A stretch of DNA of 64,000 bases from the NCBI RefSeq assembly GCF_017348835.2, contig NZ_CP071375.1. One strand, given 5' to 3'. The DNA is from Escherichia coli (lineage in GTDB: Bacteria > Pseudomonadota > Gammaproteobacteria > Enterobacterales > Enterobacteriaceae). Positions 33,001 through 39,000 of the stretch are shown here, piece after piece (position 1 is the first letter of the stretch; each line of letters opens with the position of its first letter). Position numbers: made by a program.

Positions 33001-36000
33001 ATTTCGTCCGCCCGTTTCCTGATATGCTTTTGCCATCCGCTACAAGGAGGTCAGATGGGTATCATAGCGCAAATTGACATCCTCCACGCCCTGAAGGACG
33101 TGGATCCCTGCTACGTTCAGGCTGTCGCCTGAATCATTTCGGTGGGTTCCTGCTTCAACGGGCGGCCTGACTGCACCATCCCTCCACAGGCAAGAACGGC
33201 GTGCCCCGCCGCTAAAATGTTACGAGCGCCGTTTACATCGGCGTTCGCTGTATATCCACATACCTGGCATCTGAATTTACTTTGTGACAGGCGATTTTCT
33301 TTCGCTGTATGACCACAGCACGCGCAACGCTGGCTTGTGTACGCTGGCGGAACAGCAAGCACCTGACCGCCACGCCAGAGCTGCTTGTACGCAAGCTGGC
33401 GGCGCATTTCATACCAGCCCTGATCCAGTATCGAACGGTTTAAACCTGATTTTGCCCGGACATTGCGCCCCGGCTGGCTGACCGTACCCGCTGCTGACTT
33501 TGACATGTTGCTGACCTTCAAATCCTCAATGACTATCATTGCGTGGTTTTTGCTGACGGTCGTTGTGACTTTGTGAAGGTAGTCCCTGCGGATATTTGCG
33601 GTACAGGAATGCAGTCGCTGTATTTTGCGTTTCTGCTTCTGCCAGTTATTGCTGAATTTGACCTTGCGGCTTAACTGTCGCTGAAGTCTCGCCAGCTTCT
33701 TCTGGTTTTTCTGAAAACTGTTTACAGGCTCAAAGACTGTGCCATCTGACAGCGTGGCGAGTTTAGCCACGCCAGCATCCAGCCCGACCATTGATGCTGA
33801 AGGGTGAACCGGAGTTGATACTTCACTTTCTGTCTGAATACTGATGTACCACTTACCGCAGGACTGGCTGACAGTGACATTTTTCACAACTCCCGTGACC
33901 TGACGGCTGTTCCGGTAGCGCATCCAGCCCAGTTTCGGCAGAAAAATACGGCTGTTTTCCTGATCGAGCTTAACGCCCTGCGGGTAGCGGAATGCATCAT
34001 TCTGTCCCCGCTTTTTGAATCGGGGAAAAGCAGCCCGATTCTGGAAGAAGTTTTTGTAAGCCCGCTCAAGGTCTTTCAGTGACTGTTGCAATGGCTGTGA
34101 GGGCGAATCTTTAAGCCATTGCGTTTCAGTGGCGTTTTTCCACTCAACCAGCCAGGAAGCCATTTTCCCATAAGGGATGTATTTATTACCGGCCTCATGA
34201 TTCTCATTCTGAAGCGCCAGAGCACGATTGAAAACGAAACGACATGCGCCTGCGAAGCGCCTCATTTCACACTCCTGTTGATCACCTGGTCTTAACTGGA
34301 ATTTAAATGCCTGTAGTCGTTTCACAGGCCAAATGATACTTTGGTCTGTGAAAAAAGAAACCGATATCCGGCGTGGAAGGCATTGTGTTTTCCTGATGCA
34401 TGTTCACCTGGTCTTTGTCACCAAATACCGACGCCAGATTTTTGACCATGACGCGACAGAAAAACTACGCACTTACTTTTCAAATGTATGTGCTGATTTT
34501 GAAGCTGAACTGGTTGAAATGGATGGCGAACCAGATCACGTCCATTTGTTAATTAACTATCCTCCCAAACTGGCGATATCCAGTCTGGTAAACAGCCTCA
34601 AAGGCGTATCGGGTAGGTGACTGCGACGAGATCGACCAGATATTGCAGTCAGGTATTACTACAAAGGCGTTTTGTGGAGTCCTGGCTATTTTGCCAGTAG
34701 CTGCGGAGGTGCGCCAATATCCGTCATCCGCCAATACATTGAACAACAGCAAACACCTGGTCAGGTGGAAAACCGCGCCTTATATCCCCGCCCTGAAGGA
34801 CGGGGTTTTACGGCGCACCGGATAAATTTGGTTATGCGCCGTCAGCCGTGCTAAAGAATACGGACCAGCACCCAACGGATGCCAGTCCACACAATTAACG
34901 TAACTCTGGCCAGTACGCTTTGTTGGCCTCCAGCAATTCATCCAGAATAGCTTTGGCGACTGAGGCGCTCGGTACCGTTTTCGACAAAGTAATCGCCTGC
35001 CACAGGTGCTGATATGAACGCTGTTCCCAGGCGTCCACGACCAGTTTTTCCACCGCCACTTGCTGACTCATTAACCCTTTCTGAAACTGCGGGATATCGC
35101 CGACCACCAGTGGTTCTGGTCCGTTGTGCCCGACCAGACACGGGATCTCGACCATCGCTTCATCATCAAAGTTATGGATTGCCCCGTTGTTAGGCACAAT
35201 CAGCAACATCCGCTCCTGAGTGTTGAAGGCAATTGCCGCCGCCAGATCGACGATGTATGACGCATGTTCGTCAATCTCCAGCTTGCCCGCCGCTGAATTT
35301 CCTGCCGCCGTAATGGCGCGGCAAGCATCGAAAACCTGTTTCTCGCGATGTTCCATCACCTCATTCGCGCGGATATGTTCAGGGTTGGAATGCTGAACAA
35401 CATAATCCGGGAAGAGATAATATTTCAGATAGGTGTTTGGTAATGTATCCGGGTCCAGTGCCTGGACATCCCGCGCTTTTGCATAGGTGTCGTTCCAGCT
35501 CGCTTCAGTATGCGTATCTTGCTGCGGTGGAACATAACCGTGCTTAGAGACATATTGCCGCAGCTGGGGCATCAGGTCGTTGCCCTGCAAATCTTCAATT
35601 GATGTCCACCAGCCAAAGTGGTTCAGGCCGTAGTAGCGCACGCGCATCTGTTTGCGATCTTGCAGCCCAACAATTTGAGCCATCCGGCTTTCAATACCGA
35701 TTGGCATGTCACAGATGTTGAGGATTTTCGCATTCGGGCGCAGACGACGCGTGGCTTCTGCAACAATTGCTGCCGGGTTGGAGTAGTTGAGCATCCAGGC
35801 ATTTGGTGAATATTTTTCCATATAATCCACCAGTTCCAGGACGCCGCCAATGGAACGCATGCCGTACGCTATTCCGCCGGGTCCGCAAGTTTCCTGACCA
35901 ACAACGCCGTGGCGCAGCGGGATTTTTTCATCCAGTTCGCGCATCGGGTATTTGCCGACGCGGATGTGCGCCATGACAAAATCAACGTCGCTGAATGCCA

Positions 36001-39000
36001 CTTCAGGATCGGTGGTGTAACTAAACGCAATATCCGGCGCTTTTTCTTTAAGGATGACTTTACAGGCTTCGGCAATCACTTCCTGCCGCGCACCATCGTT
36101 ATCATAAAATTTCAGTGCACGAAGCGGGAAACGGTCCTGATTCGCCAGGAGCATCAACACGATGCCTGGCGTAAAGGTGCTTCCACCGCCTGCGACAACC
36201 ACTGAGAATTTGGTCATTATACTGCCTCCGTAATGGCAACATTTTCTGCTGATTGATGAGAATTAATTAAGCTATCGAGCTGTTCACGCAGCTGGGATAC
36301 ATGCAGACCAATGATCACCTGAATGGCATCGCCACTACGGAAGACGCCGTGCGCTCCCAGCTTTTTAAAGACTTCGTCATCCAGCGTTTGTGACATGTCA
36401 TGCAGTGCAATACGTAGACGCGTCGCGCAATTGTTGATGCTGGAGATATTGCCGACCCCGCCCAGGGCTTGCAGGATACCGGCAGCCTGATCCAGCTCTT
36501 TTTTTGGCTCTGCCGCGGTGGTTTGGCCTCGCGAGGCTTTGTATTCGGCTTTTGAGTAGAGTTTCACTTCCGCATCTTCACGTCCCGGCGTGCACATGTT
36601 GAATTGCAGAATCAGGGTGCGGAAAACCACGAAGTACAGCAGGGTAAAGCACAACCCAATGGCGATTTGGGTCAGCATCATATCCGCGTGGTTGCTGAAC
36701 ATTGGGATCCAGTTTTGCGGTAAAACCTGGTCAATCAAACCACCGCCCATGTTGCCCACCACACCAAAGAGATACATTACGGTCGACATTGAGGCCGCAA
36801 GCACAGCGTGTACCGCAAACAGCAACGGTGAAATGAACAGGAAGGTAAATTCCAGCGGTTCGGTAATTCCCACCAGCATGGCGGTTAAGGTTGCGGGAAT
36901 CAGCAAACCCGCCACTTTTACCCGATTTTCCGGTGCGGCAGTGAAGTACATCGCTAAAGAAATGCCCACGGCACCAAAGATTTTTGAGTTACCGTGCAGG
37001 GCAAAACCGCCTTCCGGGAACAATGATTTCAGCGGCTCGGCGCTCAAACTGAACTCTTGCAGATGCTGCGCCCAGTACATTTGAATGCCGCCTTCAACAG
37101 CTGCCGGACCAAAGATAAACGGTCCGTAGATGAAGTGGTGTAAACCGGTTGGGATCAGAATACGTTCGAGGAAGGTGTAAACCCACACCCCAAGCGCACC
37201 CGCCGAACGCAGGAACGCTTGCAGAGATTCAATCCCCATTTGTACTTTTGGCCAGCCGAGCAATGTCAGCCAGGCACAGGGGATCATCACCAGGAAGGCG
37301 ATAATCACCACATAAGACGTCCCCTGGAAAATGCCGAGAAAAACCGGCAGTTTTTTATCGAACAGACGGTTATGCAGTGCCGTCACAATGCCGGAAATGA
37401 TAATTGCGCCGATAATGCTGGTATCGAGGGTTTTAATCCCGGCCATCATTGTCAGACCGCTACCTGCCACCGCGTCCTGAGTGAAATCGACGCCGAAGTA
37501 ACTTCCCCAGGTCATTCCCATCGCATTAATGAAATAGTTCCAGGTCAGGAAACTCACCATCACCGCCAGACAAGCACGCCCCTGCGCTTGCTTAGCAAGG
37601 CCAATGGGTAAACCGACAGCAAAAATCAGCGGCATATTACGGAATACCGTCCAACCGCCCTCTTCAATAATGTGTACGATTTGCGCAAATAAACTGTTTG
37701 GATCGGTCAGTGATTCCCCGACAAACATCGGGTTTTGCAACAAGATGGCAAGACCCACCACAATCCCGGCGAAGGGAAACAGCAGCACTGGCGTAAACAT
37801 CGCGCCGCCAAAGCGTTGAATTTGACTGAGCATTTCCACATCCTCTTTTCTCAATTCTGTAAGTAGGAAGCCTGATTGGTTATGCGGCAGGCCTGGAGCG
37901 AGGATAGGAAGATGCGATCGGCAGAACATGACGACCCAATGGGATTCGTGATCGCTTTCATGCTTTTCGTTGGGCGTTAGAGATCTACGTTTTCGCGAAA
38001 AAGTAGACATCTGTGAGCACTGGTACACAGCATCGAACACATCTTTAAAAAAAAGATGTTTTTTCAATCGATTAAGCAGAACTTGTGGGCGCATTCCCCG
38101 GGCTTGCAGGCAAAAAAGAGATCTAGAGATGATCTACAAAAGCATTGCGGAGCGGTTAAGAATTCGACTTAATTCCGCGGATTTCACGCTAAACAGCCTT
38201 CTTCCCGGTGAAAAAAAGCTGGCGGAAGAGTTTGCGGTATCGCGGATGACCATCCGTAAAGCCATTGACCTGCTGGTAGCGTGGGGGCTGGTGGTCCGCC
38301 GCCACGGTAGTGGCACTTACCTGGTGCGCAAAGATGTACTGCATCAAACCGCCAGCCTGACCGGGCTGGTGGAGGTGTTAAAACGGCAGGGAAAAACTGT
38401 CACCAGCCAGGTGCTGATTTTTGAAATCATGCCTGCGCCTCCGGCCATTGCCAGCCAGTTACGGATTCAAATCAACGAGCAGATCTACTTCTCCCGTCGC
38501 GTTCGTTTTGTGGAAGGGAAACCGCTGATGCTGGAAGACAGCTATATGCCGGTAAAACTGTTCCGTAACCTTTCGCTGCAACATCTGGAAGGGTCGAAGT
38601 TTGAATATATTGAACAAGAGTGCGGGATTTTGATTGGCGGTAATTATGAAAGCCTGACGCCGGTGCTCGCCGATAGACTGCTGGCGCGGCAAATGAAGGT
38701 AGCGGAACACACGCCACTGCTGCGGATCACCTCGTTGTCATATAGCGAGAGCGGGGAGTTTTTGAATTATTCAGTGATGTTCAGAAATGCCAGCGAATAC
38801 CAGGTGGAGTACCATTTACGGCGACTCCACCCGGAAAAGAGTTAACCGATACTCCAGAAGAGCACCGCCAGTAATTGGGGGGTGATAATGCGCAGGAACA
38901 TCACTAACGGATAGACAGTGGCGTAAGAGAGCGCCGCTGCACCGCTAGTTGGATGAAGATTATTAGCAAACGCCAGCGCCGGAGGATCGGTCATGGAACC

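Follow-up and report, generated by a model that had tools for sequence, protein, structure and literature searches.

Does Escherichia coli possess a complete phosphotransferase system (PTS) for alpha-glucosides at the glv locus, where the laboratory strain K-12 carries pseudogenes? We addressed this question in a 64,000-nucleotide stretch of the genome of a pig isolate of E. coli (assembly GCF_017348835.2, contig NZ_CP071375.1), hereafter called the window, which contains two adjacent genes, glvCB (aglA-like) and glvA (aglB-like). The evidence assembled below makes it very probable that this region is the intact ancestral glv operon of E. coli, orthologous to aglA-aglB of Klebsiella pneumoniae and specifying an alpha-glucoside PTS. 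According to both the list of open reading frames (ORFs) and the sequence itself, each gene is a single uninterrupted ORF on the minus strand: glvCB (36217..37833) encodes a 538-aa PTS enzyme IICB (EIICB), a predicted alpha-glucoside permease, and glvA (34895..36217) encodes a 440-aa enzyme of glycoside hydrolase family 4 (GH4), a predicted 6-phospho-alpha-glucosidase. These coordinates and lengths agree with a preceding sequence-only reading of the window, which had also described a four-base ATGA overlap at 36217; on that point it erred, since the junction reads TAATG and the EIICB stop codon TAA (36219-36217) and the glvA start codon ATG (36217-36215) share only base 36217. In Enterobacter orthologues, by comparison, the EIICB and GH4 genes overlap by 4 nt. 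The stop/start overlap in the window could couple translation of glvCB and glvA. Formally, the EIICB ORF opens at 38094 (36217..38094, minus strand, 625 aa), and we considered this longer frame as a real gene but rejected it, as conservation with Enterobacter begins at the ribosome-binding site and the ATG at 37833 and the alignment upstream of this ATG shows non-triplet indels. The ATG at 37833 is preceded by AAGAGGA, is conserved in Enterobacter and is the start used by RefSeq in PE164, whose sequence is 100% identical to the window across both genes. Pfam detected Glyco_hydro_4 (1.8e-66) and Glyco_hydro_4C (1e-55) in the glvA ORF, and PTS_EIIC (3.7e-71) and PTS_EIIB (2e-12) in the EIICB ORF, which excludes that these are chance ORFs.

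The EIICB protein (WP_000952127.1, identical in O157:H7) matches TIGR02005, the model for alpha-glucoside-specific PTS IIBC proteins (Glc family, AglA/MalP type), with 959.2 bits at a cutoff of 607.3, its residues 2-523 aligning to profile positions 1-524, and reaches no more than 40-48 bits on the models for beta-glucoside, arbutin and sucrose transporters. The EIIC domain (PF02378, residues 10-346) is followed in the same chain by the EIIB domain (PF00367, residues 453-482), and Cys469, within the motif NNCATRLR, aligns with the EIIB phosphorylation cysteine of E. coli PtsG ('ldaCitrlr' in 8QSR), as the GITEP motif at residue 322 does with that of PtsG in the same structure. Orthologues in Enterobacter, Phytobacter and Mangrovibacter are 80-81% identical and are named alpha-glucoside-specific IIBC. 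No EIIA domain was detected by Pfam in the 538-aa protein. The RefSeq name of the full-length protein, 'PTS sugar transporter subunit IIB', is an annotation artefact modelled on the K-12 fragment: it apparently derives from the equivalog NF007255, a 161-position profile that matches only EIICB residues 378-538, the stretch corresponding to K-12 GlvB, and the better-fitting TIGR02005 name (alpha-glucoside-specific IIBC) is left unused by RefSeq for this accession.

The enzyme encoded by the second gene is 89% identical over 439 aligned residues to the K. pneumoniae 6-phospho-alpha-glucosidase 6DUX (E=8.8e-275) and 73% identical to Bacillus subtilis GlvA 1U8X (E=4.3e-224), and matches the 6-phospho-beta-glucosidase 1S6Y far more weakly than it does these alpha enzymes (E=6.8e-61). 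Both GH4 domains are present at full length (PF02056, 223.7 bits, residues 6-184; PF11975, 189.5 bits, residues 195-415), and the N-terminal dinucleotide-binding (NAD+) motif GGGS at residues 10-13 aligns with 6DUX and 1U8X. A CDMP motif stands at residue 169, which we take to be the signature of the phospho-alpha-glucosidase subgroup of GH4. Residues C169, D170, H200 and Y263 fall opposite the metal-binding and catalytic residues of B. subtilis GlvA (MalA, which is paired with the EIICB protein MalP/GlvC), so that the catalytic Cys, Asp, His and Tyr of GH4 are conserved in the window. In the B. subtilis enzyme these are C171, D172, H202 and Y265, presumably the Mn2+ ligands (Cys, His) and the catalytic Asp and Tyr (Yip et al. 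2004); the offset of +2 between the two numberings presupposes that the 1U8X chain carries a tag of 23 residues. The GH4 catalytic residues, on which the sequence-only reading depended, are thus all in place, and the glvA product is predicted to be an NAD+/Mn2+-dependent GH4 6-phospho-alpha-glucosidase of the GlvA/AglB/MalH group. Like the window, K. pneumoniae encodes AglA and AglB (6DUX/6DVV) in the order EIICB then GH4, with the same domain architecture and the same TIGR02005 family; the species differs, as does one residue of the enzyme, AglB having Thr where the window GlvA has Ile282.

Older K-12 names for these proteins ('arbutin-specific PTS IIC', '6-phospho-beta-glucosidase GlvG') would instead have the system act on beta-glucosides such as arbutin, and they survive in places: the label 'PTS system arbutin-like IIC component' is still present in some source annotations, and glvC is listed as 'Arbutin specific PTS permease' by Touchon 2009. 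We regard this as highly improbable for the pair of genes in the window, as EIICB reaches 959 bits on the alpha-glucoside model compared with 45 on beta-glucoside IIABC and 43 on arbutin/salicin, and GlvA, which has the CDMP motif, matches alpha enzymes at E=1e-224 to 1e-275 and 6-phospho-beta-glucosidases at about 1e-60.

What, then, separates the window from K-12? The K-12 MG1655 locus was aligned with the window and with O157:H7. The K-12 genes glvC-glvB-glvG occupy the same chromosomal locus between yidP and yidL, next to an identical YidP, and K-12 and the window are 98.6% identical at the nucleotide level over shared sequence. In K-12, glvA ('glvG') lacks 508 bp corresponding to window positions 35117-35624 (codons 198-367), which takes out His200 and Tyr263 and shifts the frame. 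In the window, the 508-bp segment is flanked by an 8-bp direct repeat, AGTGGTTC, with its left copy at 35109..35116 and its right copy at 35617..35624 as placed by the alignment to K-12; one copy is left in K-12, and the breakpoints were identical, with a single copy kept, in all 12 deletion-type genomes examined. This configuration points to a repeat-mediated origin of the deletion. The second K-12 lesion lies in codon 369 of EIICB (36727..36729, minus strand), which is CAG (Gln) in the window and TAG in K-12 owing to a C-to-T change at window position 36729; the resulting Q369* divides the gene into GlvC (368 aa) and GlvB, whose 161 aa start anew at Met378. K-12 EIICB additionally has P238Q. 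The labels given to the K-12 genes by PGAP, 'frameshifted' and 'internal stop', match the 508-bp deletion and the nonsense codon, respectively. The statement in the sequence-only reading that the K-12 equivalents are fragmented or cryptic was therefore borne out in substance, with the exception of the small frameshifts it anticipated: none was found, the 508-bp deletion being the sole indel between K-12 and the window over both genes. The window shares none of the K-12 lesions, as it retains 35117-35624 and reads CAG at 36729-36727, and hence is not in the K-12 pseudogene state.

Is the intact state peculiar to this strain? It is not. Among 5426 complete E. coli genomes, 4279 gave any match to the two glv genes, and 1652 (30%), O157:H7 and REL606 among them, carried a 492-bp core of the stretch that K-12 has lost. 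In a sample of 30 rows from these 1652, all but one were annotated '6-phospho-alpha-glucosidase', the exception being H70 (1332KP), in which half of the query was covered, under a TnpB annotation. The K-12 57-mer that contains the TAG codon was present in exact form in only 348 genomes, and the matches to it listed at at least 99% identity were, four out of four, laboratory strains (ER1709, ET12567, BM28 and MC4100). We then surveyed locus states with a 9.2-kb query running from yidH to yidP, sampling 60 rows at even steps, and distinguished four: an intact state, which includes O157:H7 and E. coli B REL606; the 508-bp glvA deletion, which was the commonest; absence of the entire yidP-glvCB-glvA module, yidL then adjoining yidE (about 13 of the 60 rows, for example KS21); and an IS609-rearranged form like that of the window (2 of the 60). 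In KS21 (9780-12397 of its locus) the module is absent and yidL lies ~90 bp from yidE. About one genome in five is in this module-absent state, which probably corresponds to the B2-type condition given by Touchon 2009. In O157:H7 and REL606 both glv genes are intact, GlvA differs from that of the window by 2-4 residues, yidI-yidL are kept, and RefSeq assigns the names '6-phospho-alpha-glucosidase' and 'PTS sugar transporter subunit IIB'. The Enterobacter locus runs ibpA-ibpB-yidE-yidP, followed by the divergent EIICB-GH4 pair and yidH-yidG, and this synteny indicates that the module is ancestral at its chromosomal position and was inherited vertically. The intact operon is therefore already known, as a common, widespread and annotated allele, and represents no new kind of system.

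We also asked how selection has acted on the two genes. Genes were extracted from 21 fetched loci, and 8 non-redundant intact-type sequences and 12 glvA-deleted genomes were compared. Across the 8 intact-type sequences, segregating variants in glvCB were 57 synonymous and 3 nonsynonymous, at about 387 synonymous and 1227 nonsynonymous sites, and those in glvA were 42 synonymous and 11 nonsynonymous. Both genes are under strong purifying selection in intact-type E. coli. In the 12 glvA-deleted genomes, glvCB carried 25 synonymous and 5 nonsynonymous variants together with 3 independent nonsense codons (codons 40, 109 and 369), such codons being present in 3 of 12 deletion-type and 0 of 8 intact-type genomes. 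Synonymous to nonsynonymous-plus-nonsense variants thus numbered 57:3 in the intact and 25:8 in the deleted class (Fisher p=0.015, with a small sample). An uninterrupted 538-aa EIICB persists without its partner enzyme in 9 of the 12 glvA-deleted genomes, and in 2 of them it is identical to the window protein. This persistence could be taken to mean that the transporter does something that does not require GlvA, be it the uptake of glucose or another sugar or regulation, and that its pairing with glvA is incidental to its retention. We consider such a role improbable, because nonsense codons were confined to the deletion type and the shift of nonsynonymous-plus-nonsense to synonymous variants from 3:57 to 8:25 is what relaxed selection after loss of the enzyme partner would produce. 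The data fit a transporter that is maintained alongside its enzyme and slowly decays once the enzyme is lost, and Q369* of K-12 would be one such secondary hit after the loss of glvA.

We next turned to the regulator and the control region. In B. subtilis, the gene order is glvA-glvR-glvC with an RpiR-type activator; the locus in the window has a divergent GntR/HutC regulator instead. This is yidP (38129..38845, plus strand), transcribed divergently from glvCB and encoding a 238-aa protein with an N-terminal GntR winged helix-turn-helix (PF00392) and, at its C-terminal end, a UTRA effector domain (PF07702). YidP is identical to K-12 YidP (WP_001300779.1), and the divergent arrangement of yidP and the EIICB gene also occurs in Enterobacter. 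YidP is the presumed repressor of the glv operon. The divergent control region between the EIICB ATG and yidP (37834..38128) differs at only 2 positions from K-12 or O157. Within it, a near-palindrome at 37979-38012 bears repeats of the GTAGA(T/C) type, the repeated GTAGA(T/C)C motifs being partly conserved in Enterobacter, and a ~45-bp block including AGCGATCACGAATCCCA, about 90-135 bp upstream of that ATG, is conserved with Enterobacter. We infer from these patterns that the palindrome, the repeats and the conserved block are candidate YidP operator and CRP sites. In REL606 (8449-9086 of its locus), glvCB and glvA are intact and yidP is frameshifted; if YidP is a repressor, the glv operon may be constitutive in B strains. 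SOS reviews name glvB as a 'potential SOS box' gene. We therefore considered LexA control of glv and discarded it, as the only CTGT-N8-ACAG matches in the window lie at 29940 and 33737 and none is near glv. The match at 33737 falls inside tnpB of the IS609 element described below. The other, a perfect LexA-box core at 29940-29955 (CTGTTTATTTATACAG), probably belongs to the SOS-regulated toxin locus tisAB/istR, which PE164 annotation places upstream of emrD.

How would the system work if it is expressed? In the predicted pathway, phosphoryl groups would pass from phosphoenolpyruvate through enzyme I (EI) and HPr to IIA-Glc (Crr), which would phosphorylate Cys469 of EIIB. EIIC would take up an alpha-glucoside, to be released phosphorylated at O-6 of the glucosyl moiety, and GlvA would split the 6'-phospho-alpha-glucoside into glucose-6-phosphate and the aglycone by the NAD+/Mn2+-dependent oxidation-elimination-addition chemistry of GH4. 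Repression of the operon by YidP would probably be lifted once its UTRA domain binds a phospho-sugar effector. Likely substrates would be isomaltose, palatinose and other sucrose isomers, and methyl-alpha-glucoside, possibly also maltose or maltitol, a range carried over from AglA/AglB of K. pneumoniae and GlvA/GlvC of B. subtilis (PMC5309279). Heterologous systems lend plausibility to this scheme: in the same article, expression of K. pneumoniae aglA and aglB is stated to confer isomaltose use on E. coli (citing Pikis 2006 and Thompson 2001), the Klebsiella pair working there with EI, HPr and IIA-Glc of the host, and B. subtilis glvA and glvC are described as allowing E. coli K-12 to use isomaltose and panose (PMC5309279). 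That the strain may retain a functional alpha-glucoside uptake system, as the sequence-only reading had proposed, is a well-founded prediction. We give roughly even chances to the further proposition that the intact state would confer on this strain, O157:H7 and E. coli B real growth on isomaltose, isomaltulose and related alpha-glucosides that is absent in K-12, with yidP-glvCB-glvA constituting a four-state polymorphism.

Several observations weigh against a working operon in this strain. IIA-Glc (crr) is not encoded within the window; E. coli has crr, encoded elsewhere. Scanning for sigma-70 promoters turned up no consensus match between glvCB and yidP, with an overall match count under the shuffle expectation, so that expression may need activators or be low. 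Codon 282 of glvA (35372..35374, minus strand) encodes Ile in the window, whereas the 7 further intact E. coli alleles that we examined all have Thr, as do four solved relatives (6DUX, 1U8X, 6VC6 and 6WBT) at the equivalent position. This private T282I substitution immediately precedes the invariant Arg283; it may be harmless, yet it is the one feature that could compromise GlvA. Downstream of glvA, an IS609-associated rearrangement has removed the convergent gene yidL. Lastly, a search of the literature accessible to us for a demonstrated phenotype of natural E. coli glv operons returned nothing.

Could the genes accordingly be intact but silent or impaired here, with the operon tightly repressed by YidP, an inducer lacking in E. 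coli niches or GlvA weakened by T282I, and with no phenotype as the outcome? The missing consensus promoter and the proximity of T282I to Arg283 speak for this, as does the ease with which the module is lost, the 508-bp deletion being commonest among locus carriers and about a fifth of genomes having no module. The literature likewise calls E. coli homologues only cryptic or truncated (PMC5309279, in which Reizer 1994, Thompson 1995 and Thompson 2001 are cited for the K-12 homologues). We nevertheless think a silent or impaired operon rather unlikely. The purifying selection in intact-type strains (57:3 in glvCB and 42:11 in glvA) argues for natural use, the beta-specific enzyme BglT of Thermotoga maritima tolerates Leu at the position equivalent to 282, and both the regulator and the control region are conserved.

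The rearrangement 3' of glvA involves an IS609-like element of the IS200/IS605 type (about 33074..34821), which stands in place of 4.67 kb (yidI-yidJ-yidK-yidL) of K-12 and O157 and thereby sets the window apart from both. It carries an intact tnpB (33117..34325, minus strand; 402 aa), a member of the RNA-guided nuclease family, and, from 34333 on the plus strand, a tnpA with an internal stop. The replacement starts 19 bp inside yidI and spares the last 77 bp of yidL, and comparison with other strains identified this remnant of the yidL 3' end at 34822..34898 (plus strand). In those strains yidL converges on glvA with a 4-bp overlap; in the window, the IS609-linked loss ends 73 bp before the glvA stop codon. 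An E. coli genome has copies of this element at a median of 4 sites, and related arrangements were seen elsewhere. In O6:H16 2014EL-1346-6, IS609 is inserted next to yidH and glv is intact; in 1332KP, IS609 again lies next to yidH and the deletion ends inside glvA; and in M23917 (6275-8390 of its locus), the deletion on the IS609 side ends inside glvCB, so that glvA and most of glvCB are gone. Across genomes, these arrangements look like a series of IS-adjacent deletions of differing extent, and the 3' neighbourhood of the operon is unstable in the lineage that bears it.

As an ordinary allele, the intact operon in this strain matters little beyond bookkeeping. What our analysis adds are the exact K-12 lesions, a deletion that appears repeat-mediated, the population frequencies, the decay of glvCB after glvA loss, the caveat of T282I and the annotation artefact. 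For the species, it means that K-12 is a poor reference for the glv locus, since some 30% of complete E. coli genomes keep the ancestral operon unbroken, among them O157:H7 and the B strains that serve in protein production. If the native operon is functional, isomaltose and sucrose isomers such as isomaltulose, sugars found in starch hydrolysates and modern diets, could be used by intact strains, which would bear on metabolic models of individual strains and on fermentation of industrial glucose feedstocks. It is for this last use that Bacillus glvA/glvC have been brought into K-12 by engineers (PMC5309279). Growth on isomaltose and isomaltulose, if true, would be a diet-relevant trait of natural E. 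coli, and one for which we found no earlier demonstration with natural E. coli glv operons.

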